Shown here piece by piece: positions 4,852-58,688 of a stretch of DNA of 64,000 bases; the first letter of the stretch is position 1, and each line of letters opens with the position of its first letter. The notes beneath the pieces are model-generated. The model was not told where the DNA came from. It saw only the letters and a program-made list of their open reading frames with translations, and made no database searches. Origin of the DNA: Thermoanaerobaculia bacterium (GTDB lineage Bacteria > Acidobacteriota > Thermoanaerobaculia > UBA5066 > Gp7-AA6); the NCBI GenBank assembly GCA_040879385.1, contig JBBDKM010000029.1:27661-91660 (forward strand), given 5' to 3'. Made by a program: the position numbers and the translations under genes.

Positions 4852-4875
4852 CCGCAGCGAGTATAGATCCGGAGA

Positions 4876-6120: not shown

Positions 6121-6137
6121 GCGATCTCCTCCTTCGG

Positions 6138-6164
6138 GCCCCTCGCGAGAGGGGCTTCTTTTTT
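6138..6164 (+). terminator. terminator-like hairpin oriented against the flanking minus-strand genes
   Basis: Plus strand reads GCCCCTC-gcga-GAGGGGC-TTCTTTTTT. It lies between the DUF547 stop (6182) and the rlmI RBS/start (6120). Confidence 0.4.
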
Positions 6165-6181
6165 GGGGGAGAAGGGCCCCG

Positions 6182-6910: not shown

Positions 6911-6924
6911 GGTTCCGCCCTTTC

Positions 6925-18641: not shown

Positions 18642-18680
18642 GGTCAAGGAGTATGGAAGGCCGCGTAAATTCCATTTGAA
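18642..18680 (-). promoter_or_regulatory. putative Pho box array upstream of the OprO/P porin gene (four hexamers, 11-bp periodicity)
   Basis: Coding strand reads TTCAAA-tggaa-TTTACG-cggcc-TTCCAT-actcc-TTGACC. Hexamers start at plus coordinates 18675, 18664, 18653 and 18642. Confidence 0.6.
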
Positions 18681-18729
18681 GTCGGAGCCCGCCGGTGCGC
18701 CGCACGTTAGTCTCGGGTAGCCGACCGAC

Positions 18730-18756
18730 AAAAAAAGGGCCCCGATTGCTCGGGGC
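18730..18756 (-). terminator. orphan intrinsic-terminator-like hairpin (minus orientation) upstream of the porin promoter
   Basis: Minus strand reads GCCCCG-agcaat-CGGGGC-CC-TTTTTTT. No minus-strand gene lies upstream of it. Confidence 0.5.
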
Positions 18757-18997
18757 GTTGGAAGGACCGTGCAACGCGTGGGGGCCAGATTCCGTCTTGA
18801 ACTTCACCGACTACGTGGAACCAACGGCGACGGATACCCCGACAACCCGGACGCCGACCGCAAGCTGATCATGAACTTCGGAGCCAGCTCCGATCACTAC
18901 GAGGACGGGGCATCGAGCACGACCCTGCTCGAGGACGCGGTCCCGGTCCTGCCCGATCGGGCGGGCGTCGGCGCAAACGGCGGTAGGATCGCCGACG

Positions 18998-19918: not shown

Positions 19919-20028
19919 CGACCGGGTGGCTCCTCACCGCCGACGACAAGTCGTTTAGTCTTATCGACTTCGCAGCCGCGATGCCCGAGTCACGGATCTC
20001 GGTAGGGCCCTCCCTTTGGGTAGCCGAA

Positions 20029-20045
20029 CTTCACATGTCCTTCCG
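20029..20045 (+). promoter_or_regulatory. possible Pho box upstream of ppk1
   Basis: CTTCAC-atgtc-CTTCCG, 11-bp spacing, about 56 nt before the ppk1 ATG. Only two hexamers, and the second is degenerate. Confidence 0.35.
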
Positions 20046-20100
20046 GGCCCGGTGTTACCCTCCCGTCCTCATTGTCTTCCTTTCGAGGTGCGGTCATTCG

Positions 20101-22221
20101 ATGAGCGAAGTTCATTTCATCGGTGGGAAGGTCACTCCGGACGACCGTCTCGAGGACCACGCCCTCTATTTCAACCGCGAGATCTCATGGCTCGCTTTCA
20201 ACCGGCGGGTCCTCGAAGAGGCGCTCGACCCGGCGTGGCCGTTGTTCGAGCGCGTGAAGTTCCTGGCGATCTTCCACTCGAACCTCGACGAGTTCTTCAT
20301 GATCCGAGTCTCGGGCCTGCACGAGCAGCTCGAGGCGGCCGTGACCGAGCGCAGCGCCGACGGGCTCTCGGCCCCGGAGCAGCTGCGGATGATCCGCGAG
20401 ATCGTTCTCCAGGACGCCGGGCTCGCCATGAAGACGCTGACGGGAGATCTCCAGCCCCGGCTGGCGGACGCGGGCGTGCGCATCCTGCCGTGGGACGAGA
20501 TCGAGCCGGAGCGCCGCAAGGAGCTGGCGTCCTACTTCGACAGCGTCGTCTTCCCGGTCCTGACGCCTCTCGCGTTCGACCCCGCTCACCCGTTCCCGTT
20601 CGTGTCGAACCTCTCGCTCTCCCTCGCCGTGGAACTGTCGGAGAAAAAGGAAAAGCGCGCTGCCTTCGCCCGCGTCAAGGTGCCCCCCTCGCTCTCCCGC
20701 TTCGTTCCGATCCCCGGCGCGCCCGGCAAGACGCTCGAGTTCGTCCTTCTCGAGAATCTCGTGGAAGCGAACCTGGACCGGCTCTTCCCCGGCATGGAGA
20801 TCCTCGGCGCGTCCGCCTTCCGCGTCACGCGCGACGCCGACATCGAGATCCGGGAGGATGAGGCTGGCGATCTCCTCCGGAGCATGACGGACAACCTGCG
20901 GCGGCGGAGATTCGGCGCCGCGATCCGCCTCGAGGTCGAGGAGCGCTGCCCGGAGAACGTCCGGGAGCTCCTCCGCGGGCAGCTCGAGCTCGAGCCCGAC
21001 GACGTGTACGCCGTCGATGGGCCGCTCGGCGCGGCTGACCTGCTGTCCGTGATGAAGCTCGACCTCCCCAATCTGAAGGATGCGCCGTTTCTTCCGTCCG
21101 CTCGATCGATCTTCGACGCGCCCGCCGACCCGTTCGAGGCGATCCGGAAGGGCGACATCCTCATGCACCACCCCTACGACTCTTTCGACCCCGTCCTCCG
21201 GTTCCTCGAGGCGGCGGCGGAGGACAAGGACGTCCTCGCCATCAAGATGACGCTCTACCGGGTCGGCGCAGACTCCCCCATCGTCGTGGCCCTGGCTCGC
21301 GCCGCGGAGAACGGCACGCAGGTCGCGGTCTTAGTCGAGCTCAAAGCGCGCTTCGACGAGGAGAACAACATCCAGTGGGCGCGGTCGCTCGAGCGCGCCG
21401 GCGTGCACGTGGCGTATGGCGTCGGAGGTCTGAAGACCCACGCCAAGATCGCTCTCGTCGTGCGGCGCGAGGGCCAGGTGATGCGCCGCTACGTGCACGT
21501 CGGGACCGGCAACTACAACCGTCTCACCGCTCGCGTCTACACCGACATCGGCCTCTTCACGGCCCGCGCCGACTTCGGTCACGACGCCTCCGAGCTCTTC
21601 AACTTCCTGACCGGCTTCTCGAAGAAGACGAAGTACCGCCGCCTCGCGGTGGCGCCCTTCGCTCTCCACGACCGGGTCATCGCGCTGATCGATCACGAGG
21701 CCGAGAAGGCGCGGCAGGGGAAGCCCTCCGCCATCGTCGCGAAGATGAACGCCCTGGTGGACCCGTCCGTGATTCGGGCGCTTTACCGCGCCTCCCGGGT
21801 GGGCGTCTCCATCGACCTCGCCGTCCGCGGGATCTGCTGCCTGCGCCCCGGCGTGCCGGGTGTCTCCGAGGGGATCCGCGTCTCGAGCGTCGTCGGCCGA
21901 TTCCTCGAGCACAGCCGGGTGTTCTCGTTCGGCGTCGGAGACGAGGAGGAGATCTACATCTCCAGCGCCGACTGGATGCCCCGCAACTTCTACCGCCGCG
22001 TCGAGATCATGACCCCGATCCTCGACCAGAAGGCCCGCGAGAAGATTCGCCAGGAGGTCCTGGACCCCATCCGCGCCGACAACACGCGCGCATGGGACCT
22101 TCAGAGCGACGGGACCTACGTGCGGCGCCACCCCGCGCCGGGAGAGGCGCCCTTCGACACGCAACAGAACCTGCTCGATCGGCTGGCGAGACGGGGACTC
22201 AAGGCCGTTCCGGCGCTGTGA
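20101..22221 (+). CDS. ppk1: polyphosphate kinase 1
   Basis: MSEVHFIGG..., LYFNREISWLAFNRRVLEEA, FHSNLDEFFMIRV, and two PLD-like H-x-K regions (LKTHAKIALVVR, FLEHSRVFSF). The 5' extension of the track ORF (18769..20100) is not part of the gene. Confidence 0.97.
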   Translation: MSEVHFIGGKVTPDDRLEDHALYFNREISWLAFNRRVLEEALDPAWPLFERVKFLAIFHSNLDEFFMIRVSGLHEQLEAAVTERSADGLSAPEQLRMIREIVLQDAGLAMKTLTGDLQPRLADAGVRILPWDEIEPERRKELASYFDSVVFPVLTPLAFDPAHPFPFVSNLSLSLAVELSEKKEKRAAFARVKVPPSLSRFVPIPGAPGKTLEFVLLENLVEANLDRLFPGMEILGASAFRVTRDADIEIREDEAGDLLRSMTDNLRRRRFGAAIRLEVEERCPENVRELLRGQLELEPDDVYAVDGPLGAADLLSVMKLDLPNLKDAPFLPSARSIFDAPADPFEAIRKGDILMHHPYDSFDPVLRFLEAAAEDKDVLAIKMTLYRVGADSPIVVALARAAENGTQVAVLVELKARFDEENNIQWARSLERAGVHVAYGVGGLKTHAKIALVVRREGQVMRRYVHVGTGNYNRLTARVYTDIGLFTARADFGHDASELFNFLTGFSKKTKYRRLAVAPFALHDRVIALIDHEAEKARQGKPSAIVAKMNALVDPSVIRALYRASRVGVSIDLAVRGICCLRPGVPGVSEGIRVSSVVGRFLEHSRVFSFGVGDEEEIYISSADWMPRNFYRRVEIMTPILDQKAREKIRQEVLDPIRADNTRAWDLQSDGTYVRRHPAPGEAPFDTQQNLLDRLARRGLKAVPAL

Positions 22222-43995: not shown

Positions 43996-45717
43996 CTAAG
44001 GCTTCTTGGGCGTGGGCTTGGGGGCGGCGGCCTTAGGAGCCGACTTCGGCGGCAGCGTCCCGTCCGGCATGAGAACGACGAAGTCCTCCTTGCGCTCGAT
44101 GCCCTTGTTGGCGGCCGAGCCGCGGGGGGCGTTCAGGTCGCGCACCGAGATGCGGAAGGTGTAGTAGCCCGGCTCGAACGAGGCGAGCGGGATCTCCGTT
44201 CCCGTTCCGTAGTAACGGCTGCCGATCGGCAGCAGGTCGGCCGGCCCCGTGAAGGGCGCGAAGGCGTCCTGGCCGTCCTTCTGCACGTTGATTCGGGTCA
44301 TGACGCGCGGCTTGGAAGCGTCCGGCGCGGCCGGCGGCGTGGCGGGCGCGCCCGCGCCCGGCGTGGCGCTCGGCGCCGGAGCCGCGGCTTCGGCGGGGAC
44401 CCCCGGGTTCGAGACGGTGTAGAAGTACCAGAGGCTGTCCTGCTTCGAGAAGAGGTGGTCCCCCTTGGGCTCGACCTTGATCGGCTTCTCGGTCCCGAAG
44501 ACGAACGGATCGGCGGGGCCCGGACGCTTGGCCAGCGGCACGAGGCCGCTCGAGAGAATCAGGGGCGAGACGGCAAATTCCTCGGACTTGGGATCGATCT
44601 TGAAGGACACCGTAGAGGAGGAGACGGGGGGCTGGCCCTCGGCGGGGAAGAGACCGAAGACTCCTTTGTAGCTGCCGGGCGGCAGCACGACGGAGCGGTC
44701 CAGCGCCCGGTCCTTGCGTCCGGCCTCGGCGATCTCCGAGAACGCGGCGTCCTCCCAGAAAGACTCGACTTCTTTCCCCGACTCGTCATGGATCAGTCCT
44801 CCGAACTTGAGCGGGGCCCCCGACGCGAAAGCGGGCTTGTTCGACGGCAGGTAGTACTGGAGCGCGAGGAACGAGTCTCCGGAGGAGGACCGGAACGTCC
44901 CCGACCAGAAGGACGCGTCGCCCTCGTTCTTTCCGGCGGCGGCCTCGAGCGCCGACTTGACGGCCGCCGGCAGCGGCATCGTGGGAACGGAGGCCGCCGG
45001 CGCGGCAGCGGCCGGAGCGGCGCCTGTCGCGGCCGGCGCACCCATGGCCGGCGGTACGGCGGCGGGCCGCGGCGCACTCGCCGCGGGGGCTCCAGCGGCC
45101 GGCGGGGTACCGACGGTCGCGTTGGGATTCACGATCGATTTGTCGGCGATCGTGGCCATCGCCTTGTCGGCGGCCGAGGCGTTCTGAAACTCGTCGTTGC
45201 CGCGCTGGGGATCCAGCGCGACCCGTACGCGCAGGTCGCCCAGCCCCCAGGAGGGGTCGAACTTGTCCTCGTCGTAGATCCAGGTCTGCACGGTCGTCAC
45301 GCCCCCGGCGACCGATTCCACGCCGGGGTCCCGAAGACCCGTGTCCGGGGTCGCCTGGCCGTCCATGGGCCCTCCGAGACCGGACTGCAGGACCCGGCTG
45401 GGGTTTCCGAGCACGATGAAGAGGCGCCCGCGCGCCGACTCGGACCCCTTCTGACGGCGGCCCTTGAACTGCTCGTCGGCCGCCGCGATCCGCCGCCGCA
45501 TCCCGTCGCGGAACGGCTCGCCCCCGCGCCTGGCGAAGTAGAGGGCGATGAACTTATCGGCCCCCTCGTCGGTCGAGACGTTCTTCCACTCGGCGCGCTC
45601 GGCCGGAGTCAGGAAGTAGGCCTCCGGTGTCTTGTCCCAGTCCTTGTATTTCGACAGCTGCGCCAGCGCGGCCGCGGTGATGACGAGGCCGGCGAGAGCA
45701 AAATAGATCTTTTTCAC
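43996..45717 (-). CDS. GWxTD-like domain-containing secreted protein with Ala/Pro-rich linkers
   Basis: KDWDKTPEAYFLTPAERAEWKNVSTDEGADKFIALYFARRG...GSESARGRLFIVLGNP resembles the GWxTD domain. The GTG at 45717 has the RBS GGGAGGA; an ATG at 45738 is the alternative start. Confidence 0.7.
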   Translation of the reverse strand: MKKIYFALAGLVITAAALAQLSKYKDWDKTPEAYFLTPAERAEWKNVSTDEGADKFIALYFARRGGEPFRDGMRRRIAAADEQFKGRRQKGSESARGRLFIVLGNPSRVLQSGLGGPMDGQATPDTGLRDPGVESVAGGVTTVQTWIYDEDKFDPSWGLGDLRVRVALDPQRGNDEFQNASAADKAMATIADKSIVNPNATVGTPPAAGAPAASAPRPAAVPPAMGAPAATGAAPAAAAPAASVPTMPLPAAVKSALEAAAGKNEGDASFWSGTFRSSSGDSFLALQYYLPSNKPAFASGAPLKFGGLIHDESGKEVESFWEDAAFSEIAEAGRKDRALDRSVVLPPGSYKGVFGLFPAEGQPPVSSSTVSFKIDPKSEEFAVSPLILSSGLVPLAKRPGPADPFVFGTEKPIKVEPKGDHLFSKQDSLWYFYTVSNPGVPAEAAAPAPSATPGAGAPATPPAAPDASKPRVMTRINVQKDGQDAFAPFTGPADLLPIGSRYYGTGTEIPLASFEPGYYTFRISVRDLNAPRGSAANKGIERKEDFVVLMPDGTLPPKSAPKAAAPKPTPKKP

Positions 45718-45770
45718 AAATCCTCCCAAAGGGTTCATCAGAAGGGGCAGATTCTATAGCGGAAGCGCGG

Positions 45771-45817: not shown

Positions 45818-46210
45818 CTAGCGGCGTTCCGTCTTGACCACGGAGTACCCCCGGCCCGGGATCTTGGCCAGGGCGAGGGTCTGGGACCCGCCTTTCCGTG
45901 TTCCCAGCTCCTCCCGCAGCACCCCGAGAATCTTCTGGACCTCGCCGTGCATCGTCTCCATCCGCTGTTTCATGTGCAGGATGACCTCGACGCCGGCGAG
46001 GTTGACGCCCAGGTGCCGGGTCAACGTCAGGATGATCTCCAGTCGCTCGATCGTGTCGGTGTCGTAAAGACGCGTATTTCCCCCGGTCCGGGCCGGCCGG
46101 AGGAGCCCTTCGCGCTCGTACATGCGGAGGGTCTGGGGGTGGATCCCGTAGCGCTCCGCGATCGCGCCAATCCGGAAAACCCCGGACCGCTCCCTCTCCC
46201 GGCTCTTCAT
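45818..46210 (-). CDS. hspR: MerR-family heat-shock transcriptional repressor HspR-like
   Basis: HTH FRIGAIAERYGIHPQTLRMYEREGLLRP. Last gene of the dnaK-hsp20 cluster. Start overlaps the hsp20 stop (ATGA). Confidence 0.85.
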   Translation of the reverse strand: MKSRERERSGVFRIGAIAERYGIHPQTLRMYEREGLLRPARTGGNTRLYDTDTIERLEIILTLTRHLGVNLAGVEVILHMKQRMETMHGEVQKILGVLREELGTRKGGSQTLALAKIPGRGYSVVKTERR

Positions 46211-46659
46211 CGAGCCTTCCTCGGCTCGACTGAGATCGGCTGGGCGCGGTCCGACTTGGGGGCCACGACTCGAAGCACTCCAGCGCGCAGCGTCGCCTTG
46301 ATCAACGCCGCATCGAGCGAGGCCGGGATCGGAAACTCCCGTGAGAAGGAGCCGTAGATCCGCTCCATCCGCACGAAGTGCCGCGGCTCCGCTCCGGTCC
46401 AGGCCTTGCGGAGCCCGGCGATCCGCAGCTTACCGTCGAGGGCCTCGAGCCGCACGTCGTCGAGCCGCACCCCGGGGAGCTCGATGTTCAGGATGATCTC
46501 CTCGGGCGTCTCGTACACGTCCGCCGCCGGAGACCAGAGGGCCGCGTCCAGACCCTCGTCGGGAAACTCGGTGCGGTGGATCGTCTCTTCGAACAGGCGA
46601 TTGACCTTTTCCTGGATGGCGAAAAGGTCCTGAAGCGAATTCCAGCGAAAGACGGTCAT
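46207..46659 (-). CDS. Hsp20/alpha-crystallin family small heat-shock protein
   Basis: Alpha-crystallin domain ([19 protein letters not shown]..., GVLRVVAPK). Confidence 0.95.
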
Positions 46660-46761: not shown

Positions 46762-48675
<1,914 letters not shown>

Positions 48676-48713: not shown

Positions 48714-48742
48714 ACTATAGAACATGAGTCAAGTACTGTCAA
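48714..48742 (-). promoter_or_regulatory. sigma70-type dnaK promoter: TTGACA-N17-TATAGT
   Basis: Minus strand has TTGACA (48742..48737), a 17-nt spacer, then TATAGT (48719..48714). The 10-bp perfect palindrome AGTCGCGACT (48707..48716) overlaps the -10/+1 region. The leader of about 30 nt carries GAGGAG. Confidence 0.6.
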
Positions 48743-48787: not shown

Positions 48788-50056
48788 CTACTCGACGACC
48801 AGAACACTCGGCCGGTCGGGTAGCTGCACCGGCCGTGAGGTTGCCGGACGGAGCTCTGAAACGGGCGCGAGACTCCGCTCGAGCGACAGATCCAGGTCGA
48901 TCTGGCCGCGGGCGTTGCGCCCGTAGAGGCCGAATTTGCCGTCCTCCGCCCGCAGAATGTAGCGGTAGAAGCGTCCGTACGGGTCCCGCAGCGCATCCTC
49001 CTCGAGGATACCCGCCACCACCAGGTCTTCGAGGCTCTGCGGATAACGCCCGCTCGAGTCGTAGAAGACGCGCACGGCCCGCTCGATCGCCACCGCACGG
49101 TTCAAGGAGATCGCCTTGCGGAACTCGGCGATCTCGAGAACCTCGCCGGGCGGCCGAAGGAGGAGATTGGCGGGATTGCGCGGGATCACGTAGATCGAGA
49201 CCGCGGCCAGCACGAGGAGCGCCGCCCAGAGCCCGAGCGCGCGTCCCGGCGGGGCGTGCGGAGCGGCGGGAGCGAGAGCCCGCGGCCCCGGACCGGGAGG
49301 CTCCTCCTCGATTCGACCGGGCTCGATCAGGTGCCGCCCGATCAGGTCCGCGGTGCCCTTCAGGACTTCGAAGTCGGAGAGGAAGGCGCGTTCCATGATG
49401 TCGCCGACGGAGCGCTTCCCGTCGATCCACCGCCACGTCTCGGCTTCGGACTTGGTGACCGACAGCGTCCCCTCGGGCGGGTTTTTCTCGCCGACGGTGA
49501 GGTTCAGGGTCTCGACACCGGGCGCTCGGCGGTAGACCGTCTCGAGCGATCCGACCTTCTTCTCGAAGAGTGGCCACTCGTCGACCATCTGCGCGGCTTC
49601 CATCAGGATGGTTTCGGTGGAAACGGGGGCCATGTGGTCCGCGTCGTAGTCGACCATGCCCTCCTGGCTGAACCGGAATCGGCCGTCCGGCCAGCGAAAC
49701 GCCGAGTAAACGATCCGCGCGATCTGCAGGCGCAGGGCCTGGTGCAGCTCCTGCGGATCGACCAGCCGCTCCCGCACGAGGAGGAATCCCATGCGCTGCT
49801 GGGTCTCCTTCTGGGTCGCCAGGATGCCGTCGAGCTGCTCCTGCGTCACGTAGCCCGCCCGGATCAAGAGGTTGCCCAGCCGATTCTCCAGCCGGCGCTC
49901 GGCCGACTCGGCGGCGATGACTTTGCCGCCGAGGAAGGAGATCGTCACGGTGTCGTCCTCGCCCTCGACGATGAGGACACCCGTTTTCCGCTGAAGCCCG
50001 AGCATCTGGAAGATGTCGGTCAGCGAGAAGACCTTGAGGGTTCCTTCAAGACCCAC
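48788..50056 (-). CDS. DUF4388 domain protein with central TM helix and C-terminal GspG/pseudopilin-like globular domain
   Basis: N-terminus GLEGTLKVFSLTDIFQMLGLQRKTGVLIV (DUF4388). TM helix ALGLWAALLVLAAVSIYVI. The C-terminal FYDSSGRYPQSLEDLVVAGILEEDALRDPYGRFYRY resembles the T2SS protein G core. GTG start. Confidence 0.75.
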   Translation of the reverse strand: MGLEGTLKVFSLTDIFQMLGLQRKTGVLIVEGEDDTVTISFLGGKVIAAESAERRLENRLGNLLIRAGYVTQEQLDGILATQKETQQRMGFLLVRERLVDPQELHQALRLQIARIVYSAFRWPDGRFRFSQEGMVDYDADHMAPVSTETILMEAAQMVDEWPLFEKKVGSLETVYRRAPGVETLNLTVGEKNPPEGTLSVTKSEAETWRWIDGKRSVGDIMERAFLSDFEVLKGTADLIGRHLIEPGRIEEEPPGPGPRALAPAAPHAPPGRALGLWAALLVLAAVSIYVIPRNPANLLLRPPGEVLEIAEFRKAISLNRAVAIERAVRVFYDSSGRYPQSLEDLVVAGILEEDALRDPYGRFYRYILRAEDGKFGLYGRNARGQIDLDLSLERSLAPVSELRPATSRPVQLPDRPSVLVVE

Positions 50057-51974
50057 CGGAGGACCTCCTCGCCGCGAGCTGTGCCCGCAACCAGACCGCC
50101 GCCGCCAGGATCGCGCCGGCGACGACCGTGAGCCGGATAGGCCCCGACGCCGGGAGCGTGAGCGGGTCGAAAAGGCGCAGACCTACGAGCGCGGCCGCTA
50201 GGCCGAAGAAAAACACGAAAGCCGCCACGGCGCCCGCCGCGGGGCGCTCGACCCCGAACGCGACCGCACCGGGCGCCAGGAGCGACACGATCCGCCTGGC
50301 GCGATGCCGCCAGGTCAGGCGGTGCTCCAGGGCCCTCGCCTCCGCCGCCTGCTCACCGATGTCGACACTCTCCTTGCGCAAAGCGAGGCGCGCGCACGCG
50401 GAGCAGTAAAGCTTCGGATCTCCGTAGCGCCGGCAGCGGTTGCAGAAGGCGCGGCCGCAGCGCTGGCATTCGGCGGCGAGGCCGCGGCGGCGCAGACGCT
50501 CGAGGAGGGCCCCGAGGGCGAGCGCGGCGAGCGGCGGCAGCGACCAGACCGAGACCAGCCCGCGCCAGCCGTGCGCCGCCCCGTGCCCGGGAAGCCGGCG
50601 GCTCTTGGGCTGCGCGTTCCACTCCGCGATCCGGCTGTGGGCCCGGGCCACGGAGTAACCGGCCGGCACGACTCGGAAGAGGGTCGGCGCATCGGCCCAT
50701 CCGTTGACCCGAGACGGCGAGATCTCCCGCGCGCGCGCCATGTCCCGGGCCTGCCCGTCGAAGTCGTATGCTTCGCCGCGCGCGAGCGACAGGTTGTAGA
50801 AGACCTCCGCGGCGTCGGGGGCACGGATGGACGCCTCGAAGTAGTCGCGGATGGCCTCGCCGTAGTCGCCCTCGGTGAAACGCACGTTCCCGCGATTCAG
50901 GATCGGCCGGTAGTCGTTGGGGTCCGCGTGCATTGCCCGGCCGTAGTCGGATTGCGCCCGCTCGTAGTCGCCGGCCCGTTCCGCGTAGACGCCGAGCAGG
51001 AACCAGACGTCGGAGTCTTCCGGGAAAACGGCCGACGCCTGGCGCAGGCCGTCCTCGGCGCTCGCGTCCTCGCGGCGTTCGGCCAGATCCACCGCCGACA
51101 CCAGGAGCGGCGACCGCTGCTCGATGTTCTCGCGGGTCAGCCACGAGACCAGGGGCGGCACCAGGGCGAGCAGGAAGAACCCCGCGACGAGAACGGCGCG
51201 CTCTCGCTTCTCCGCGTAGGGATAGAGCAGCGCCCCCCAGTACAGGATCAGCCAGAGGGGCCCGAACCCGAGGAAGAGCGGCAAGCCCAGGATGGCCAGC
51301 GCCAGCGGGAGCGCGGCGCTCCTTCCGAAGAGGCGGTTGGCCGTTTCCCGAATGTCGTGAGCGGCCCGGGGAAAGTGGCGCAGGCCGAGGGCGAGAATCG
51401 TGACCATCAGCATGCCGCCGATCGCGCACGCGGCCCAGAGCCCGATCGAGGAGAAGATCGCCACGCGCGACTCGTGCGTCGAGAAGAGCGCGACGGCGGC
51501 CGCGGGAAGCGAGCCGAGCGCCTCGAGAGTCCGGCCCTGGCGCACCTGGAACGACAGCCGGGCCAGAATGGCGTCCGGGTTGGCGCCGTCGAGCCGGAGC
51601 GCCGCTTCGTAGGCCCGGAAGGCCCGCTCCTCCGCCTGTCCGAGCTCTTCGGCGCGCCGGCCCAGGTACACGGCGGTCCGGGAAAAGTCCGACAGATGGT
51701 GCACGCCGACCTTGCGCGCGGCTCGCACCATGCCGTCGAGCGCCCGGGCCGCGGCCGCGGAGTCGTTCTCGGAGAAGGCGGAGAGAAACTCGAACCACTG
51801 CGAACGATAGAGGCTGCGCGTGACGGGCGGAGGCAGGGGCGAGAGCGAGTCCTGCGCGCGCGCGGGCGGCGCAGAAAGGACGAGGGCCGCCGCGAGGACG
51901 GCGAGGACGCAGGAATTGGCAGCCGTGAGGCAGGCGAACCTGGCCGACGGCCCTCCGCCGCGTCGAGAGAACAT
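50046..51974 (-). CDS. TPR-repeat polytopic membrane protein with cytoplasmic Cys-rich zinc-ribbon segment
   Basis: Real start MFSRRGGGPSARFACLTAANSCVLAVLAAALVLSAPPARA. TPR-like repeats (…AERAGDYERAQSDYGRAMHADPNDY…GDYGEAIRDYFEA…). CQRCGRAFCNRCRRYGDPKLYCSAC. Several TM helices. The upstream part of the track ORF is artefact. Confidence 0.75.
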   Translation of the reverse strand: MFSRRGGGPSARFACLTAANSCVLAVLAAALVLSAPPARAQDSLSPLPPPVTRSLYRSQWFEFLSAFSENDSAAAARALDGMVRAARKVGVHHLSDFSRTAVYLGRRAEELGQAEERAFRAYEAALRLDGANPDAILARLSFQVRQGRTLEALGSLPAAAVALFSTHESRVAIFSSIGLWAACAIGGMLMVTILALGLRHFPRAAHDIRETANRLFGRSAALPLALAILGLPLFLGFGPLWLILYWGALLYPYAEKRERAVLVAGFFLLALVPPLVSWLTRENIEQRSPLLVSAVDLAERREDASAEDGLRQASAVFPEDSDVWFLLGVYAERAGDYERAQSDYGRAMHADPNDYRPILNRGNVRFTEGDYGEAIRDYFEASIRAPDAAEVFYNLSLARGEAYDFDGQARDMARAREISPSRVNGWADAPTLFRVVPAGYSVARAHSRIAEWNAQPKSRRLPGHGAAHGWRGLVSVWSLPPLAALALGALLERLRRRGLAAECQRCGRAFCNRCRRYGDPKLYCSACARLALRKESVDIGEQAAEARALEHRLTWRHRARRIVSLLAPGAVAFGVERPAAGAVAAFVFFFGLAAALVGLRLFDPLTLPASGPIRLTVVAGAILAAAVWLRAQLAARRSSGGS

Positions 51975-51985
51975 CCTTCCGCGGC

Positions 51986-52438
51986 CTATCGCGGCGGCTC
52001 CCGGCCCGGCGGGCGCACCACCTCGACGTAGGCCAGGCGCAGCTCGTAGAGGACCTTCGCGAGCAGGTCCGACTCCTCGAAAGCGAGATTTCCGCGCGTC
52101 TTCTCCTCGAGGACCCCGAGCCAGTCGATCATCTGCCTCGCGGCCGCCGGCTCCGGGCGCGGGAGGCGCTCCCCCGTCATCGGATCGATGCCGAGCGCCG
52201 CGTAGACGTTGGAGGCGAGAAAGCTGACGAGCCCGATGAACGCCTGCGACGCGACGCGGTCGGTCCCGGGGTCCGGCGCCGGGGCGCTCCCCTCCATTCC
52301 GGCCGGCGGGCGGGATGGGGCCTCCGGAGCCTGCGGCGGCTCGGGCTTCTCTTCCGCCTCGAAATCCGGACGCAGCTGCCCGTCGGACGTGAACATCCGG
52401 CGATCGACGACCCGGATGGGTTTTTCCTCTTCGGCCAT
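51986..52438 (-). CDS. DUF1844 domain-containing protein
   Basis: FIGLVSFLASNVYAALG...ARQMIDWLGVLEEKTRGNLAFEESDLLAKVLYELRLAYVE matches the DUF1844 pattern. A GTG at 52444 is the alternative start. Confidence 0.78.
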   Translation of the reverse strand: MAEEEKPIRVVDRRMFTSDGQLRPDFEAEEKPEPPQAPEAPSRPPAGMEGSAPAPDPGTDRVASQAFIGLVSFLASNVYAALGIDPMTGERLPRPEPAAARQMIDWLGVLEEKTRGNLAFEESDLLAKVLYELRLAYVEVVRPPGREPPR

Positions 52439-52529
52439 CGCCACCGTCCTTCGACTGGGAAAGAGGAATCTTAACCCGTCGGCGCGCCGCGCGCCTCGGC
52501 CGGGCCGGAGCGGCGGGTATGATCCGCTC

Positions 52530-53297
52530 GTGTCCGACGACCTCGACCGCCTCGCCGCGCTGGTCGCCCGTCTGCGCCGGGAGTGCCCCTGGGACCGGGA
52601 ACAGTCCTTCGAGACCCTGAAGACCTATCTTCTGGAGGAAACCTACGAGACCCTGGCCGCCCTCGACACGGGTGAGCCGGAGCCCCTCCGCGACGAGCTC
52701 GGCGATCTGCTCTTTCAGGTCTTCTTCCTGGCGCGGCTGTCCGAGGAGAAGGGCCGCTTCGGCATCGACGAGGTCGCGCGCGCCGTCACCGCGAAGATGA
52801 TCGAGCGCCATCCGCATGTCTTCGGCGAGACGCCCGCGGGCAGCGCCGAGGAAGTCAAGAGCACCTGGGAACGGCGCAAGCGCCGGCAGCCCGACGTTGA
52901 GGACGACCCTCTCGGGAGCCTCCCCGCCGCCCTTCCGGCGCTCGCGACCGCCTACCGGCAGACCCAGCGCGCGGCGGACCTGGGCTTCGACTGGGAGCGG
53001 GACGCCGACATGGCCGCCAAGATCGAGGAGGAGCTCGCCGAGTGGCGGGCGGCCGAGAAGGCGCAGGATGCCGCCGGCGAGACGCACGAGATCGGGGACC
53101 TCCTCCTCTCGGTCGTCAACCTCGCGCGGCGCCGGAAGATCGACCCCGAGAGCGCCCTGCGCCGGTCCAACCGGCGGTTCCGCGAGCGTTTCGCGGCCGT
53201 GGCGCGCAAGGCGCGCGCGGGCGGACGGGATGTGTCGGAAACGCCGATGGCCGAGCTCGACGCGTACTGGGAGGAAGCGAAGAAAGCCGGAGCGTGA
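52530..53297 (+). CDS. mazG: nucleoside triphosphate pyrophosphohydrolase MazG
   Basis: LRRECPWDREQSFETLKTYLLEETYE..., ELGDLLFQVFF, HPHVF, and a second MazG repeat (EELAEW..., IGDLLLSVVNLAR). The GTG lies 6 nt after TATGAT. Confidence 0.9.
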   Translation: MSDDLDRLAALVARLRRECPWDREQSFETLKTYLLEETYETLAALDTGEPEPLRDELGDLLFQVFFLARLSEEKGRFGIDEVARAVTAKMIERHPHVFGETPAGSAEEVKSTWERRKRRQPDVEDDPLGSLPAALPALATAYRQTQRAADLGFDWERDADMAAKIEEELAEWRAAEKAQDAAGETHEIGDLLLSVVNLARRRKIDPESALRRSNRRFRERFAAVARKARAGGRDVSETPMAELDAYWEEAKKAGA

Positions 53298-53303
53298 GCG
53301 CCC

Positions 53304-54203
53304 CTACTTCACCAGCTCCGTCACTCTCACCACGCGGACACCCTCTTTCACCAACCCCGGCAAGTCGCGCTCCAGTACCGCGAGTGTCGCCGGATATGGG
53401 TGCCCGATCGCGATCGCGCTGCCCTCTTTGCGCGCACGCCGCACGAGCTCGGCCAGCTGCGCCCGCACGGCGGCCTCGGTCGAGACGTCGTCGAGGAAGA
53501 CGCGACGGCGGGCGGCAGGCACCCAAGACTCCTCCGCGACACGCTCGGCGACGGTCGCATCCGTCGTCCGGCTGTCCAGGAAGAAGAGGCCGCGCCCCGA
53601 GAGCACGCGCGCCACCGTCCGCATGACGCGGGGATCCGCTGTGGCGGCCGAGCCCATGTGGTTGTTGACCCCCACGGCGCCCGGAACCGAGTCGAGGTCC
53701 TCCTCGAGGATCCGGACGATCTCCGGGTCGGACTGCGTCCGCAGGATCACGCCCGGGCCGGGGCGCACGTTCGGATAGCCCGCGGGCTCCATCGGAAGGT
53801 GAAGCAGCACTTCCTTGCCTCCGCGGGAAAGCGTCCGGGCCGATGCCGCGCTGAAGCGCAACCCCGGCAGCACGGCGCCGGCGACAGGGTCCCGCCAGCC
53901 CGCGATGCGCTCGGCCGGGCCGAGCTCGTTGCCCAGATCGTCGATGACGATGGCCACCCGCACCGGCGCCCGGGCGGAGCTTCGAGCGCGATCGGGGGCG
54001 CGGGTCGGCCGTGGCGCGGGTTCCGGAGGCACGGGGGAACGGCGAGGTCGCATCGGTCGAGCCGCAGGGCGCGGCGGCGCCGGAGGTTTGGCTTGGGGAC
54101 GCCCCGAAGGGCAGGCCTTCCACAAGAGCGCGGCCCCCAGGACGAGGGAAAGAAGAGCGAAGAAGACCGTCGTCCGGGAAATGCGGCGCGGGCGGCGGCT
54201 CAA
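53304..54203 (-). CDS. divergent polysaccharide deacetylase family protein (YibQ-like)
   Basis: N-terminal TM, then VAIVIDDLG, LLHLPMEP, GVNNHMGS, FFLDSRTT, IAIGHPYP. Start codon uncertain (TTG at 54203). Confidence 0.85.
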   Translation of the reverse strand: MSRRPRRISRTTVFFALLSLVLGAALLWKACPSGRPQAKPPAPPRPAARPMRPRRSPVPPEPAPRPTRAPDRARSSARAPVRVAIVIDDLGNELGPAERIAGWRDPVAGAVLPGLRFSAASARTLSRGGKEVLLHLPMEPAGYPNVRPGPGVILRTQSDPEIVRILEEDLDSVPGAVGVNNHMGSAATADPRVMRTVARVLSGRGLFFLDSRTTDATVAERVAEESWVPAARRRVFLDDVSTEAAVRAQLAELVRRARKEGSAIAIGHPYPATLAVLERDLPGLVKEGVRVVRVTELVK

Positions 54204-54216
54204 CGGGTCCGGGGCT

Positions 54217-55380
54217 TTACGCCGCCTGGCGTGACGCGTCGGCGGACCGAATGACCTCCAGGCCCCGTTCCAGGATCAGATCGCGCTCGCCGGTCTCGCC
54301 CGGGAATACGATGACCCGCTCGTCGGGGGAAAGACCCTTGCCGCCGAGCACCTGCCCCGAGGGAGAGACGTAGCGGCCGATGGTCATGAACAGCGTGCCG
54401 CCCTCCTGCGTCGGCACGGCCCGCTGGAGGATGGCCATGCCGACCGTGGTTTCTCCGACCGTCGTCGCCTTCGCGCGATCGTGCAGCGCGGCCGCGAACA
54501 CCTCGGCCGGACCGGCCGTGGAATCGTCGGTCAGGATCACGGTCCGGCCCTTCCACACCGAATCGCCGGGCGCCTCGAGGAGCTGACCCGCCGCCTTGCG
54601 GGAGCGCACGGTCGCGATCGGGCCCTTGTCGAGAAACAGCGAGGCAACCGGAGCAGCGGCGGCCGGCTCGCCGCCGATCGAGCCGCGCAGATCCAGCACC
54701 ACCTTCGAGATCGACCGGCGCGCCGCCTCGTCGAGCTCCTTGCGGACGGCCGCGGCCGTGGAGGACGTAAACGAGGGGATCCGGATGATCGCGACGTCCC
54801 GCTCCCATTTCGTCGACGGCGCCGGAGGCTCGAAGCTCGACCGGGTCACCGGGATCGTCAGCTTCTTCTCGTCGCCGCCGCGGAAGAGTCCCAGCTCGGC
54901 GGAAGAGCCCTCCGGGCCCTCGAGCGCCGCCTTGACCTTCCAGAACGGAGCGTTGCGCAGGGGCTTTCCGTCCACCGAGTCGAGGAGATCCCCGGCCTTG
55001 ATCCCGGCCTTTTCGGCCGGCGAGCCGGGCAGGGGACCGACGACGTACGGGTATCCGCCGCGCCGCGCGAAGACGATTCCGGGACTGGCGGCGCCGGCGC
55101 TCTGCTGCGCCCTGTAGGCGGGCATCGCGGAGGCCGGCACGTAGTAGGAAAAGGGGTCGAGGGCGTCGGACATGGCGTCGTAGGCGCCTTCGAGCAGGGC
55201 CCGCGAGTCCGCCGGCTCCACGTAGTTGGACCGGGTCAGGGAGAAAACTTCGGAGAAGATCGAGAGCGCCCGCGTGGCGGGGTCCCGTCCCGCGCCCTCG
55301 GGCCCGGCCACGGCCCGCAGAGACGCCAGGGCCCCCAGGGAAACCACGACGAAGGCGATGCGCGAGCGGTTGGATCTCAT
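54217..55380 (-). CDS. S41 family C-terminal processing peptidase with PDZ domain
   Basis: Signal peptide MRSNRSRIAFVVVSLGALASLRAVAG, PDZ (GSPAEKAGIKAGDLLDSVDG), S41 core (VLDLRGSIGG, LTDDSTAGPAEVFAAAL). An ATG at 55416 is the alternative start. Confidence 0.88.
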   Translation of the reverse strand: MRSNRSRIAFVVVSLGALASLRAVAGPEGAGRDPATRALSIFSEVFSLTRSNYVEPADSRALLEGAYDAMSDALDPFSYYVPASAMPAYRAQQSAGAASPGIVFARRGGYPYVVGPLPGSPAEKAGIKAGDLLDSVDGKPLRNAPFWKVKAALEGPEGSSAELGLFRGGDEKKLTIPVTRSSFEPPAPSTKWERDVAIIRIPSFTSSTAAAVRKELDEAARRSISKVVLDLRGSIGGEPAAAAPVASLFLDKGPIATVRSRKAAGQLLEAPGDSVWKGRTVILTDDSTAGPAEVFAAALHDRAKATTVGETTVGMAILQRAVPTQEGGTLFMTIGRYVSPSGQVLGGKGLSPDERVIVFPGETGERDLILERGLEVIRSADASRQAA

Positions 55381-55437
55381 CGGCAGGATGGTAACACCGG
55401 GCTGCGGCAGCCCCATTTCGTCAATCGCGCGCGGACA

Positions 55438-56586
55438 CTAGCGGAGCCAGGCCACCGGGTCGCTGGCCTTCTGACGGTCCCGCACCTCAAAGTACAGGCC
55501 CGGCTCATCGCGCCCCGGCCCGAATCCGGCCAGGCCGATCTCCGTGCCCACGGACACGGGCACTCCCGGCCGGACTGCGACGCCCTGAAGCCAGGCATAG
55601 AGCGTCAGCATCCCGTCTCCGTGATCCAGGATCACGAGGTTTCCGTACTCGGCCAGCCACTGCGCGTAGATCGTCTTTCCCGCGTAGACGGCGCGCACGG
55701 GCGTTCCCAGCGGGACCGCCACCGCGACACCGTTGGAGACGGTCCAGGTGTCGAACTTCGGGTGGCGGTGACGGCCGAAGGTCTCGACGATCGTGCCGCG
55801 GGCGGGCCAGTCGAGCACGCCCTTCCAGGGACGGATCCCGCCGGCCGCCGCCGGCTCGTCCCCCGCCGACTGGCGCGAGAGAGTCTCGAGCAGCCTCTCC
55901 AGGCGCGAGGCCTTGTCGGTCAACCGCGAGACCTCGCGCCGCCGCGACGCGGCTTCCCGGCGCTCGAGCGAGAGCAGCTTCTCGCGCTCGGTCTTGAGCG
56001 AGGCGACCCGCTGCTCCTCCTGGCGGCTCACGAGATAGAGCCTGTCGATCTCGGCCTTGAGCGCCTGCTCGCGGGCGAGGTCCCGCTGGAGGCGCGCCTC
56101 CGCCTCGCGGTAGCCCCGCAGCAGCTTCCCGTCCCGCCGCGCCAGGCTGTCGAGGCGTTCGATCGAGTCGAGGAAGGCCGGCAGATCCCTCGCCTCGAGC
56201 AGGATCCGGAAGTAGCCGAACCGCCCGAAGCGATGGAGCAGCCGCGCCCGCGCCGAGAGGGCCTGCCGGAAGCGCGCGGCCGCCGCCGAGGCCGCGGCGC
56301 GCTCCTCCGACACGGCGGCGAGCCGCCGCCCGAACTCCTCGCGCGTCGCGGAGACGAGCTCGCCCTCGCGCGTGGCGAGCTCGAGCCGCAGGTCGAGGCG
56401 CTGCAGCTCCTCGGCGAGTGTGGCTTCCTTCTTTTCGCTCTCCGCGAGCTTCGTCTTCAGAGAGGCGATGCGGCTCTTCAGGCGATCCAGGTCCGCCTGG
56501 CGGTCCGAGTCGCCGGGAGGGACCGGGTCCTGACCGAGAAGCGGAAGAGCGAAAAGAAGGACCACCGCAGCACGCCGCAGCCTCAC
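55438..56586 (-). CDS. M23/LytM-domain murein hydrolase activator (EnvC-like) with N-terminal coiled coil
   Basis: VRLRRAAVVLLFALPLLG signal, long coiled coil, C-terminal LytM domain (GVAVAVPLGTPVRAVYAGKTIYAQWLAEYGNLVILDHGDGMLTLYAWL). GTG start overlaps the upstream stop (GTGA). Confidence 0.85.
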   Translation of the reverse strand: MRLRRAAVVLLFALPLLGQDPVPPGDSDRQADLDRLKSRIASLKTKLAESEKKEATLAEELQRLDLRLELATREGELVSATREEFGRRLAAVSEERAAASAAAARFRQALSARARLLHRFGRFGYFRILLEARDLPAFLDSIERLDSLARRDGKLLRGYREAEARLQRDLAREQALKAEIDRLYLVSRQEEQRVASLKTEREKLLSLERREAASRRREVSRLTDKASRLERLLETLSRQSAGDEPAAAGGIRPWKGVLDWPARGTIVETFGRHRHPKFDTWTVSNGVAVAVPLGTPVRAVYAGKTIYAQWLAEYGNLVILDHGDGMLTLYAWLQGVAVRPGVPVSVGTEIGLAGFGPGRDEPGLYFEVRDRQKASDPVAWLR

Positions 56587-58688
56587 CAGAGCGCCTTCCC
56601 CGCCGCGTCCTCGACCACCGGCCCGCCGTAGAGCGCCCGCACCGACGCCGTCACGTCCGCGATCCCGGGAACCGGATCGGCCCGGAAGGGCTTCGAGGCG
56701 AAGAGCACGCCGCGCACGAGGTCCGGGTCGAGCGAGCAGTGGTCGCCGCTCCACACGTCCCGGTTGTCCTCGAACACGGTCGCGGTCGGCACGCCGAGCG
56801 AGGACTGCCACGAGACGCGATAGCCCGGACGGTTGGTGACGATCAGGTCGGGGATCAGGCGCGGGTCGAAGCGGCGGTAGACCTCCTCCCGCTTGAAGAC
56901 CCGCGAGACCGCCTTCTCGTTGGTCTTCGGATCCGTCAGCGCGGTCAGGCGCTCGGAAAGCTCGGCGCGCAGCGCCTCGTATTCGGCGCCCGGCGCGACG
57001 ATCCCTCCCTGCTCGCGGCCCTGGAGGTTGACGTAGATGTCGCCGAGGCCCATCGCGTAGGCCTTCGATTTCGACCAGTCGACGGCCTCCCAGAACTGGC
57101 CGCGCGAGAAGAGGGCCTCGAGGTTCTGCCGCCTGGCGTCGCCCTCGAGGACGAGGTAGCCGTTCTCGACGAGCCAGGAGTTGTAGTTGACGGACCGGCG
57201 CCAGGTGGCGAAGCCGTGATCCGACAGGACGATCAAGACGTCCTCGGGCTTCAGCGCCTTCGCCGTCTCGCCGACGATCTCGTCCATCGTGGCGTAGGAC
57301 TTCTCGACCGCGTCGCCATACGTCCCGGCGAGCCGGGCGTCGTAGGCCGGGTGCTCCGGATCCCGAAAGCGCCAGAACACGTGTCCGACACGATCCGGAA
57401 ACTCGAAGTAGTTAAACAGCAGCCGCTCTTTGCCGCCGAGGAGCCCGCGCAGCATTTTTCGTTCCTGGTCGCTCGTGTGGCGGACGTCCTCCAGGAACGC
57501 CTCCTCGGACAGCGTGCCGGACTGAATCGACCAGGTGTCGATCGCCCAACCCATGGTCTTGTAGCGGCCGAACCGCTCGACGAGCTCTCCCGCGAAGCCC
57601 GCGGGCGAGGAGATCGCGAACCCCGGAGGGAGACGCTCGGGGTCGAACTGGATCGGCGAGAGGTACAGGCCGATCTCTGGCTGGACCGTCGCCAGGCGCA
57701 TCCGCGCGTAGCCGCGCACGGCAACGAGCGGATTGACGCGGAAGGAGAGGGAAATCCAGTCGCTCCACTCCCCCGGCTTCAGCTCCTCCCGCCCCCCGGA
57801 GGTTTCGATGACGAGACGGTCGCGCGCGTCGGGAACCGTCAACGTCAGGAGCGCGTCGATCGTCCCCTCGCGGCCGAACGCGCGGCCGGGCGGACCGGCG
57901 ATCCTCGTCGCCTGGCGGCCCACGTTCGACTCGAGCCGCACGATGTCGACCGAGAAGTCGTTTCCCTCGCGGAGGGCGAAGAAGGGGTCGGACGTGTAGT
58001 ACGCCGGCTTGCCGATGCGGCCCGAGAGGTCCGGCACGCCGAGCCCGGAGAGCATGCGCCCGTCGGCGAAGGGCTCGGGCGGAAACGTCACGGGCATGCG
58101 GACCACGATCGAAGGCCGCGCCCCGGCCTCGCTCCAGAACACCGGCCCCCGCCGGTTGTTCCGAACGGAGGGCCGCGTCTCGGGCAGCCACGACCTCGCC
58201 GTCAAAAACGCGCCGGCGGCCGCGCCCGCCGCCAGAACCGCCAGCACCGCGCCGGCGGCGCGCCGCTGCCGGAACAGAAGGAGCGCCGGCAGAAGAAAGA
58301 TCGCCGCCCCGGCCGCGGCCAGAACCGCCGGGGTCTTCTTCCCGAAGAGAAACGGGACCGAGGTTTCCTCCGCGACCGCAAAGGTCGGGATGCGATTGGC
58401 CGGGTCGCGCTTGAGGAAGTCGAAGATCTCGTGGCCGCCCGGATCGAGGCCCGTCGAGAAGGTCGCCCACGAGACGGGTGTCTGCGCCGGGATCGTCGGG
58501 GTCAGCGGCGAGTACCCGCCGCGCCGCGCGAGCTCGGCGAGGTTCGGAAGCTCTCCCCTGCCAAGCATCTCCTCGACGATCTTCGCGTCCACGCCGTCGA
58601 ACCCCAGGATCACGATGCGGCCGGGAGCTGCGGCCGAGAGCGGCGCCGCGAGGAGGAGGACCGAGAGCGCGGCGCCGGTCAGCTTCAT
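56583..58688 (-). CDS. alkaline phosphatase / nucleotide pyrophosphatase-phosphodiesterase (NPP) family protein with an internal two-helix hydrophobic insert
   Basis: Signal MKLTGAALSVLLLAAPLSAA. NPP blocks ILGFDGVD, TIPAQTPVSWATFSTG, VLSDHGF. Hydrophobic segments TPAVLAAAGAAIFLLPALLLF and AAGAVLAVLAAGAAAGAFLTA lie inside the catalytic domain. Confidence 0.82.
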   Translation of the reverse strand: MKLTGAALSVLLLAAPLSAAAPGRIVILGFDGVDAKIVEEMLGRGELPNLAELARRGGYSPLTPTIPAQTPVSWATFSTGLDPGGHEIFDFLKRDPANRIPTFAVAEETSVPFLFGKKTPAVLAAAGAAIFLLPALLLFRQRRAAGAVLAVLAAGAAAGAFLTARSWLPETRPSVRNNRRGPVFWSEAGARPSIVVRMPVTFPPEPFADGRMLSGLGVPDLSGRIGKPAYYTSDPFFALREGNDFSVDIVRLESNVGRQATRIAGPPGRAFGREGTIDALLTLTVPDARDRLVIETSGGREELKPGEWSDWISLSFRVNPLVAVRGYARMRLATVQPEIGLYLSPIQFDPERLPPGFAISSPAGFAGELVERFGRYKTMGWAIDTWSIQSGTLSEEAFLEDVRHTSDQERKMLRGLLGGKERLLFNYFEFPDRVGHVFWRFRDPEHPAYDARLAGTYGDAVEKSYATMDEIVGETAKALKPEDVLIVLSDHGFATWRRSVNYNSWLVENGYLVLEGDARRQNLEALFSRGQFWEAVDWSKSKAYAMGLGDIYVNLQGREQGGIVAPGAEYEALRAELSERLTALTDPKTNEKAVSRVFKREEVYRRFDPRLIPDLIVTNRPGYRVSWQSSLGVPTATVFEDNRDVWSGDHCSLDPDLVRGVLFASKPFRADPVPGIADVTASVRALYGGPVVEDAAGKALW

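Follow-up and report, generated by a model that had tools for sequence, protein, structure and literature searches.

Known receptors for cyclic di-GMP (c-di-GMP) are few relative to the many cyclases and phosphodiesterases. The recognition module MshEN is defined by a 24-residue motif, RLGxx(L/V/I)(L/V/I)xxG(L/V/I)(L/V/I)xxxxLxxxLxxQ, that occurs twice with a 5-residue spacer (PMC5013675). The alpha-clip of a second module, the PATAN domain (DUF4388), was noted by Han et al. as common to the N1 domain of secretion ATPases, and cyanobacterial PATAN is an output module at the inner membrane that binds the N-domains of PilB and PilC (bioRxiv 10.1101/2021.06.11.447907). The cyanobacterial DnaK1 binds the PATAN regulator PixG and also PilB (PMC13710413). 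Here we describe a cluster of three genes, A, B and C, in a 64,000-nucleotide (nt) stretch of DNA (the window) from a Thermoanaerobaculia bacterium (Acidobacteriota; GenBank assembly GCA_040879385.1, contig JBBDKM010000029.1, positions 27,661–91,660). Protein C joins a PATAN domain with a predicted c-di-GMP site to a pseudopilin-like head through one transmembrane (TM) helix, and protein B is a membrane protein with tetratricopeptide repeats (TPR) and a zinc ribbon. The domains are all known; we found no account of the PATAN/MshEN–winged helix–TM–GspG head architecture of C, of its obligate TPR/zinc-ribbon partner or of the wide conservation of the pair. B and C are a real and ancient gene pair.

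The three genes are arranged as follows:
51986–52438, minus strand: gene A, DUF1844 protein of 150 aa
50046–51974, minus strand: gene B, polytopic inner-membrane scaffold of 642 aa, start MFSRRGGG
48788–50056, minus strand: gene C, bitopic inner-membrane protein of 422 aa, GTG start with AGGAGG before it

The tight packing given in a preliminary description of this DNA was confirmed at the level of coordinates, with a gap of 11 nt between A and B and an overlap of 11 nt between B and C. The G+C content of the window is about 69%. All three are real genes rather than chance open reading frames (ORFs), because C has hundreds of homologues at 75–89% identity and B and C occur in 26/26 high-quality related genomes. 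Near-identical database proteins carry Thermoanaerobaculia (Acidobacteriota) names.

Protein C comprises, from its N-terminus:
49547–50056, minus strand: PATAN (DUF4388) domain, cytoplasmic, residues 1–170, matched by PF14332 in two stretches
49724–49882, minus strand: MshEN-type insert, predicted to bind c-di-GMP, residues 59–111, NCBIfam NF053729
49319–49474, minus strand: winged-helix-like domain, third helix acidic (SDFEVLKGTADLIG), residues ~195–246, from weak Pfam matches and the model
49184–49240, minus strand: single TM helix, residues 273–291, with a conserved (R/K)NPxN motif and a break rich in Pro after it
48857–49144, minus strand: GspG-type pseudopilin head, periplasmic, residues 305–400

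C matches PF14332 with 110.2 bits (cut-off 25, E = 8.5e-32), as do 20/20 diverse orthologues. In the AlphaFold model of C (pLDDT 81.6) the PATAN alpha-clip insertion forms two repeats of two helices (56–66 and 72–85, 89–95 and 101–119). The letters of this insert, RLGNLLIRAGYVTQEQLDGILATQ followed by KETQQ and then RMGFLLVRERLVDPQELHQALRLQ, read directly as two 24-residue motifs (R59–Q82 and R88–Q111) with a 5-residue spacer, which is the published MshEN definition, and NF053729 scores the insert with 49 bits, above its curated cut-off of 38. A profile built from the 20 diverse orthologues retrieved the N-domains of PilF, MshE and PilB from the PDB (E = 4e-17 to 6e-11), and Foldseek superposed the model of C on the c-di-GMP-bound GSPII-B domain of PilF (8pdk_B) with a root-mean-square deviation (rmsd) of 1.0 Å. 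All contact and turn residues of motif 1 (R, L, G, L, G, L, L, Q) are present, and of 81 C orthologues from four phyla, 79 or more retain each of G61, L64, L75, L79, Q82, G90, L93 and Q111. The PATAN domain of C contains an apparently complete, conserved MshEN motif, and C is a predicted c-di-GMP receptor. The preliminary description had overlooked this apparently intact site, which is the most informative feature of the protein. Three paralogous DUF4388 proteins are encoded in the same genome, none with a hydrophobic segment comparable to the TM helix of C.

The model elements of the winged-helix-like domain are strand 197–200, helices 202–210, 217–223 and 228–240, and strand 244–246; weak TrmB and POLR3C_WHD matches to this region were obtained for 2/20 orthologues. 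A disordered Pro-rich linker separates it from the TM helix, which is the top hydropathy window in 81/81 C orthologues, usually with basic residues N-terminal to it. The preliminary description had likewise given C a DUF4388 domain and one TM helix. Hydropathy and positive-inside analysis predict that the N-terminus of C is inside and the head outside, as in an unprocessed pilin. In the model, the TM helix (272–293) is interrupted at NPANLLLRPPGEV, with the NPxN motif conserved, before a separate helix (307–335) begins.

The head is built from an alpha1-C-like helix, a G-x-x-P...L...L...DP(W/Y)G..Y.Y motif, a beta-sheet and a G..G..D.D.L loop. Its strongly conserved signature comprises G336 (74/81), P339 (80/81), L342, L345, D358-P359-(W/Y)360-G361 (D358 in 59 and P359 in 73 of 81), Y364 (65/81) and Y366 (67/81). 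The window protein scores 17.1 bits against Pfam T2SSG (PF08334), below the cut-off of 21 (E = 0.0057); the family was matched by 9/20 diverse orthologues (best E = 1.3e-8), and many database orthologues carry a precomputed PF08334 assignment. Relatives yielded only three GspG matches for a profile–profile comparison; a profile of the C-terminal domain searched against the PDB retrieved eight GspG/EpsG/PulG/XcpT chains (E = 6e-7 to 9e-5) and nothing else at significance. Foldseek aligned the model with PulG (1t92_A) at probability 1.00, a TM-score of 0.66 on the target and an rmsd of 2.3 Å. The pseudopilin-like domain proposed in the preliminary description was thus recovered by both profile search and structure prediction, and on these two lines we regard it as homologous to the major pseudopilin head of type II secretion systems (T2SS). 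The Myxococcota version of the head is shorter, with only a helix and two strands. The absence of a prepilin leader, also proposed earlier, extends to the family: around the TM helix, all 81 orthologues lack the leader with its G↓F(T/S)LIE motif, G-1 and Glu5. Since C has no prepilin-peptidase site and no Glu5, and its TM helix is split from the head helix, it is predicted not to be cleaved or polymerised like a pilin.

Protein B is divided as follows:
51465–51974, minus strand: signal-peptide-like segment 11–40 (ending ARA↓QD) and helical domain of ~130 aa, residues 1–170
51132–51464, minus strand: block of four TM helices, residues 171–281, with 215–251 read as a helical hairpin, from hydropathy and the model
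50562–51131, minus strand: TPR domain of 190 residues, residues 282–471, from TPR matches
50394–50468, minus strand: zinc ribbon CxxCGxxxCxxC-x9-CxxC (CQRCGRAFCNRCRRYGDPKLYCSAC), residues 503–527
50070–50246, minus strand: two C-terminal TM helices, residues 577–635, from hydropathy (model helices 578–597 and 615–640)

Its inferred topology has about seven TM helices, two periplasmic helical/TPR domains (~320 residues together) and a cytoplasmic zinc ribbon. Pfam assigned only TPR families to B, at residues 305–400 (E = 7e-9 to 3e-7), with scores above the cut-offs for TPR_17 (35.7 versus 24.4 bits), TPR_2 (35.3 versus 27) and TPR_11 (30.6 versus 26.8). Consensus TPR structures match the AlphaFold model (pLDDT 89.2, pTM 0.86) with TM-scores of 0.8–0.87 on the target; for B as a whole, Foldseek yielded generic TPR proteins only and no solved relative. 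The N-terminal domain, with helices at 54–165 in the model, is probably periplasmic as judged from hydropathy and loop charges, in agreement with the orientation proposed earlier. Hydropathy segments at 171–201, 215–251 and 258–281 are connected by short loops rich in Lys and Arg, and an even number of TM helices together with the positive-inside rule would place the TPR domain in the periplasm as well. TM5 lies between the TPR domain and an 84-residue basic loop (19 Lys/Arg versus 8 Asp/Glu) that contains the zinc ribbon. The charge of this loop and the inferred helix count suggest a cytoplasmic ribbon, a location that suits a Cys-rich metal site. C503, C506, G507, C511, C514, C524 and C527 are invariant in 36 B orthologues, and the pattern across phyla is CxxCGxxxCxxC-x9-15-CxxC. 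The six-Cys ribbon occurs in 62/73 orthologues, which together with the TPR matches bears out the polytopic TPR and CxxC zinc-ribbon protein of the preliminary description; seven more orthologues have only the outer four Cys, and the ribbon is missing in 3–4. The model places short strands at 501–502 and 509–510, and the zinc ribbon is a prediction.

C was found in 41/41 related genomes, and A and B were each matched in 39/41; where coordinates were listed, A and B adjoin C in an unchanged order. Scanning GTDB species genomes for C gave 80 loci from Thermoanaerobaculia, Holophagae, Vicinamibacteria and other Acidobacteriota, Myxococcota (Myxococcus sp. Y35, Archangium), Nitrospirota including Thermodesulfovibrionia, and Bdellovibrionales. 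With a Myxococcus B added as second query, a B-like gene was found directly upstream of C in 80/80 loci. The distance from B stop to C start has a median of 2 nt and is at most 30 nt in 70/73 loci, and the adjacency persists across phyla where the identity of C drops below 30%. The B–C pair is therefore conserved across at least four phyla (Acidobacteriota, Myxococcota, Nitrospirota and Bdellovibrionota). Of the three-gene synteny expected from the preliminary description, the B–C part holds in every locus and the A part essentially only in Acidobacteriota; the conserved unit is the pair. Among 121 high-quality Acidobacteriota genomes, 81 encode a C relative (E <= 1e-25) and 40 do not; about 47 of the 81 relatives are full length, and in some families the match extends only to about profile position 300. 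Clustering of ORFs for further neighbours was noisy from high-GC shadow ORFs, and the only additional conserved neighbour it gave was a downstream gene in Myxococcota, taken as phoH. This gene follows C in the Myxococcus sp. Y35 locus (B at 3733–5994, C at 6001–7119, then phoH), and a conserved downstream gene in 13–15 of 22 non-Acidobacteriota loci was taken as the same phoH.

In Myxococcus xanthus, which has 17–22 MshEN proteins, most without known function, the counterparts of B and C are very probably MXAN_4740 and MXAN_4739; this assignment follows from lengths, spacing and order as in the Y35 locus, not from sequence comparison. MXAN_4739 (5937026–5938141, 1116 nt) is listed as an MshEN protein and marked as internal to 'Operon 25', which also holds MXAN_4740 (5938148–5940388). 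Transcript mapping gave this operon a single start site that lies 60 nt ahead of MXAN_4740, and MXAN_4739 is up by 1.5–2.0 log2 units in development (all from the supplement of PMC8844925). We found no article text discussing either gene.

Protein A matches PF08899 (DUF1844) with 70.5 bits (cut-off 27, E = 1.4e-19) and has an isoelectric point of 4.7, in line with the small acidic DUF1844 protein first described. It consists of an N-terminal motif (IRVVDRRMFTSDGQLR), a disordered linker rich in Pro, Ala and Glu, and a C-terminal helical DUF1844 domain of ~75 residues; in the family alignment the N-terminal motif (I/L)KVxD(R/K)RxFTx(D/E)G is conserved and the linker varies in length. A search for a solved relative of DUF1844 gave only a non-significant match to the UvrB C-terminal hairpin (E = 0.14), and in the literature searched a single paper refers to the family, in passing, with nothing on function. 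A adjoins B in 50/80 loci, almost all from Acidobacteriota, often with a 4-nt overlap; the presence of DUF1844 and the state of the zinc ribbon of B showed no clean pattern of correlation. In Myxococcota, DUF1844 is a single-copy gene in 52/61 genomes and lies away from B–C, and the control genomes of Deinococcus and Thermotoga encode it too. No universal neighbour of DUF1844 was found outside Acidobacteriota. The presence of clpB within 8 kb in 9/24 Myxococcota loci hints at a chaperone-related role of DUF1844 that is independent of B–C.

The following genes and sites flank the cluster in the window:
46762–48675, minus strand: dnaK paralogue, downstream of C
48714–48742, minus strand: sigma-70-type promoter of dnaK, TTGACA-17-TATAGT, in the 112-nt C–dnaK gap
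46207–46659, minus strand: hsp20, after dnaK
45818–46210, minus strand: MerR/HspR-like gene, after hsp20
43996–45738, minus strand: protein of 580 aa with a signal-peptide-like N-terminus and long Pro/Ala-rich stretches
52530–53297, plus strand: mazG, divergent from A–B–C (Pfam MazG, 3.2e-31; start codon approximate)
53304–54203, minus strand: YibQ-like divergent polysaccharide deacetylase
54217–55416, minus strand: S41 C-terminal processing peptidase with a PDZ domain
55438–56811, minus strand: M23 peptidase with a coiled coil (EnvC-like)

The position upstream of dnaK, part of the preliminary description, is shared by many Acidobacteriota of several classes, with C identity down to ~32%, and never occurs outside the phylum; in the window dnaK also has its own near-consensus promoter, with 11 of 12 consensus positions (0.2 such sites in shuffled sequence). 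A scan of the C–dnaK gap found no palindrome and no k-mer of 8 nt or longer that recurs ahead of A; no operator common to the dnaK promoter and the sequence ahead of A was found. The genome encodes two DnaK paralogues that are 56% identical. The one beside C adjoins hsp20 and the HspR-like gene, with no grpE or dnaJ beside it; the second (C22:36770–38560, on another contig) lies in an hrcA–grpE–dnaK–dnaJ-like region, as judged from ORF N-termini, with a PilT-like ATPase (C22:31656–32867) and an MglA-like GTPase ORF (C22:41265–42497) on the flanks of that region. Outside the window, contig C13 encodes (~18666–20300, plus strand) a 544-aa fusion of DUF4388/PATAN (7.5e-21), a J-domain (2.3e-14, with HPD) and TPR, and PATAN matches at a comparable place in open frames of ~540–750 aa were seen across the genus. 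As predicted from its domains, this fusion links PATAN proteins with Hsp70. The 580-aa protein has no Pfam match, and its gene is kept downstream of the hspR-like gene in close relatives.

On the other side, Acidobacteriota and Myxococcota alike keep the divergent mazG arrangement. The intergenic region that separates the starts of mazG and A includes a palindrome made of G and C only (GGCGCGCGGCGCGCC, about 52470–52485), in a genome of 69% G+C. Beyond mazG, the order of the minus-strand cell-wall cluster (53304–56811) next to mazG is conserved.

We tentatively propose that B and C assemble into a complex of the inner membrane, a c-di-GMP-responsive adaptor connecting the cytoplasmic messenger with the periplasm; this is a reading from sequence that we would rate as somewhat more likely to be wrong than right. 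The signalling or polarity role suggested in the preliminary description is likewise conjectural. In this model c-di-GMP would bind the MshEN/PATAN module of C and alter its cytoplasmic partners, which by analogy with cyanobacterial PATAN may be PilB/PilC-type motor parts, possibly together with Hsp70. C would be neither processed nor polymerised like a pilin; its head would rest against the periplasmic TPR surface of B and be an immobile docking site or mimic there for periplasmic components that are pilin-like or of type IV pilus (T4P) or T2SS type. In Acidobacteriota the acidic cytosolic DUF1844 protein would be a translationally coupled accessory, perhaps sitting on the basic zinc-ribbon loop of B. 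T4P/T2SS-like machinery and Hsp70 are the leading candidate targets. A wider formulation, which we consider doubtful, is that B–C represents an unrecognised class of trans-envelope c-di-GMP effector common to Acidobacteriota, Myxococcota, Nitrospirota and Bdellovibrionota, in which a captured pilin head would be the non-polymerising periplasmic output or mimic, wired through the single TM helix to the PATAN/MshEN receptor, and c-di-GMP, possibly with a dedicated Hsp70 paralogue, would gate, from a locus apart from the canonical pil and gsp operons, how pilus-like or secretion machinery is assembled or polarised.

The adaptor model draws on the domain anatomy and folds, the MshEN motif, the strict B–C coupling, the predicted topology, the PATAN partners known from other organisms and the presence in this genome of seven T2SSE-family ATPases, on other contigs, and of PilC/GspF platform proteins. 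Several observations weigh against it. Position 10 of motif 2 in the window protein is Arg (R97) rather than the turn Gly, which is present in 38/81 orthologues; in the same motif M89 replaces Leu, and positions other than that of R97 are kept in at least 65/81. The periplasmic placement of the TPR domain of B depends on 215–251 being a two-helix hairpin, and the B–C and A–B contacts are read from gene coupling only. The 40 of 121 Acidobacteriota genomes without a C-profile match all have the PilC/GspF platform family (T2SSF), so C is not a core part of T4P or T2SS. Co-occurrence with T4P or T2SS genes, which the preliminary description had suggested examining, does not discriminate, since T2SSF is present in 121/121 of these genomes, with or without a C match. 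Neither pil nor gsp genes were ever seen next to the cluster in the loci examined. A canonical T2SSG (PF08334) pseudopilin at E <= 1e-8 was not found in the genome itself, and a T2SSG match was present in only 3/9 genomes searched.

The neighbouring heat-shock genes support another explanation, in which B–C is a membrane proteostasis module that does not serve pili or secretion; at the inner membrane it would recruit Hsp70 (and ClpB) or regulate them, or it would report envelope stress to them. C lies directly upstream of the dnaK–hsp20–hspR-like unit in many Acidobacteriota, that dnaK is a second paralogue without adjoining grpE or dnaJ, the genome encodes the PATAN–J-domain–TPR fusion, DUF1844 lies within 8 kb of clpB in 9/24 Myxococcota loci, and cyanobacterial DnaK1 binds a PATAN regulator (PMC13710413). 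However, dnaK has its own strong promoter and no operator in common with the sequence ahead of A, the gene that follows B–C outside Acidobacteriota is phoH and not a chaperone gene, and the pseudopilin head and the c-di-GMP site would be left without a role. We think this explanation unlikely; it is compatible with the adaptor model, as rival or as complement. That the genes are independent, their order merely inherited and the GspG-like domain a decayed relic reused as a generic periplasmic domain, would fit the wide occurrence of DUF1844 without B–C, the shortened head in Myxococcota and the Acidobacteriota families that match the C profile only to about position 300. It is difficult to reconcile with B–C adjacency in 80/80 loci at near-zero spacing while C identity falls below 30% between phyla, or with the strongly conserved G..P..L..L...DPWG..Y.Y motif, and we consider it highly improbable.

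The winged-helix-like domain just ahead of the TM helix raises the further possibility that C is a ToxR-like membrane-tethered transcription factor acting, e.g., at the mazG promoter, with its periplasmic domain and B as sensor and co-sensor and c-di-GMP as co-signal. The divergent mazG arrangement kept in two phyla agrees with this, and Han et al. recount a former prediction that PatA-type proteins bind DNA; they themselves argue against it as unlikely for PATAN regulators (bioRxiv 10.1101/2021.06.11.447907). Pfam winged-helix matches are weak and restricted to 2/20 orthologues, and the helix at the recognition position is acidic or hydrophobic (family consensus GEFETCKxLxxLL) and unsuited to DNA contact; given this acidic helix, we give such a role very little credence. 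The homology of the head to that of GspG would also be expected if C were a genuine pseudopilin subunit, cleaved and assembled into a pilus-like fibre. Yet no orthologue has a class III signal peptide, G-1 or Glu5, some 270 folded cytoplasmic residues precede the TM helix, this helix is discontinuous with the alpha1-C helix, and the locus holds no assembly genes. The lack of a prepilin motif and Glu5 and the broken alpha1 exclude this role by sequence, and we attach next to no probability to it.

The C family is unusual among MshEN proteins in being an integral-membrane MshEN/PATAN protein with a periplasmic domain, which suggests a route by which c-di-GMP status could be passed to the periplasm or periplasmic state to the receptor. 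A GspG head without polymerisation apparatus suggests that pilin heads are usable as stand-alone interaction modules. The pair is testable, as it occurs in four phyla and has the probable counterpart MXAN_4740/MXAN_4739 in the tractable M. xanthus, and its characterisation would annotate a core gene pair found in much of the poorly studied Acidobacteriota. The preliminary description could not place the architecture in any described system, and our literature search for DUF4388 combined with a pseudopilin likewise found no description, only automatic labels of the kind 'DUF4388/T2SS protein G'.

Among known systems, the TPR pilus-biogenesis proteins PilF/PilW and Tgl bear a functional resemblance to B only, in presenting TPR in the periplasm. 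The best NCBIfam TPR match of B is type_IV_pilW (E = 2.3e-10), at 40 bits far under the family cut-off of 154, so B has generic TPR similarity and does not belong to that family; unlike these outer-membrane lipoproteins, it has about seven TM helices and a zinc ribbon. With GspG, PulG, EpsG and XcpT, C has the head fold in common, including alpha1-C, G.YP..L..L and DPWG..Y.Y, and its terminal G..G..D.D loop aligns with the C-terminal G..DG...D.DI segment of GspG. Unlike GspG, it lacks a prepilin leader, Glu5 and a continuous alpha1-N, has an unrelated TM anchor and is encoded outside a gsp or pil operon; neighbours in the loci examined are mazG, DUF1844, B, and dnaK or phoH, with no gsp or pil assembly genes beside C. 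The 53-residue tandem motif of C is that of the MshEN/GSPII-B receptors (Vibrio cholerae MshE, PilB and Thermus thermophilus PilF). In secretion ATPases MshEN is N-terminal, whereas in C it is embedded in PATAN without an ATPase domain, and binding is a prediction only. The PatA-type/PATAN regulators (Synechocystis PixE, PixG and LsiR, Anabaena PatA, and M. xanthus SgnC = MXAN_6627) have an N-terminal PATAN with a two-repeat alpha-clip, as in C, and characterised members localise to the inner membrane, where the PATAN output binds PilB and PilC (bioRxiv 10.1101/2021.06.11.447907). These regulators are soluble and usually fused to REC, whereas C has no REC, is embedded in the membrane with one domain in the periplasm, and has a dedicated polytopic partner.

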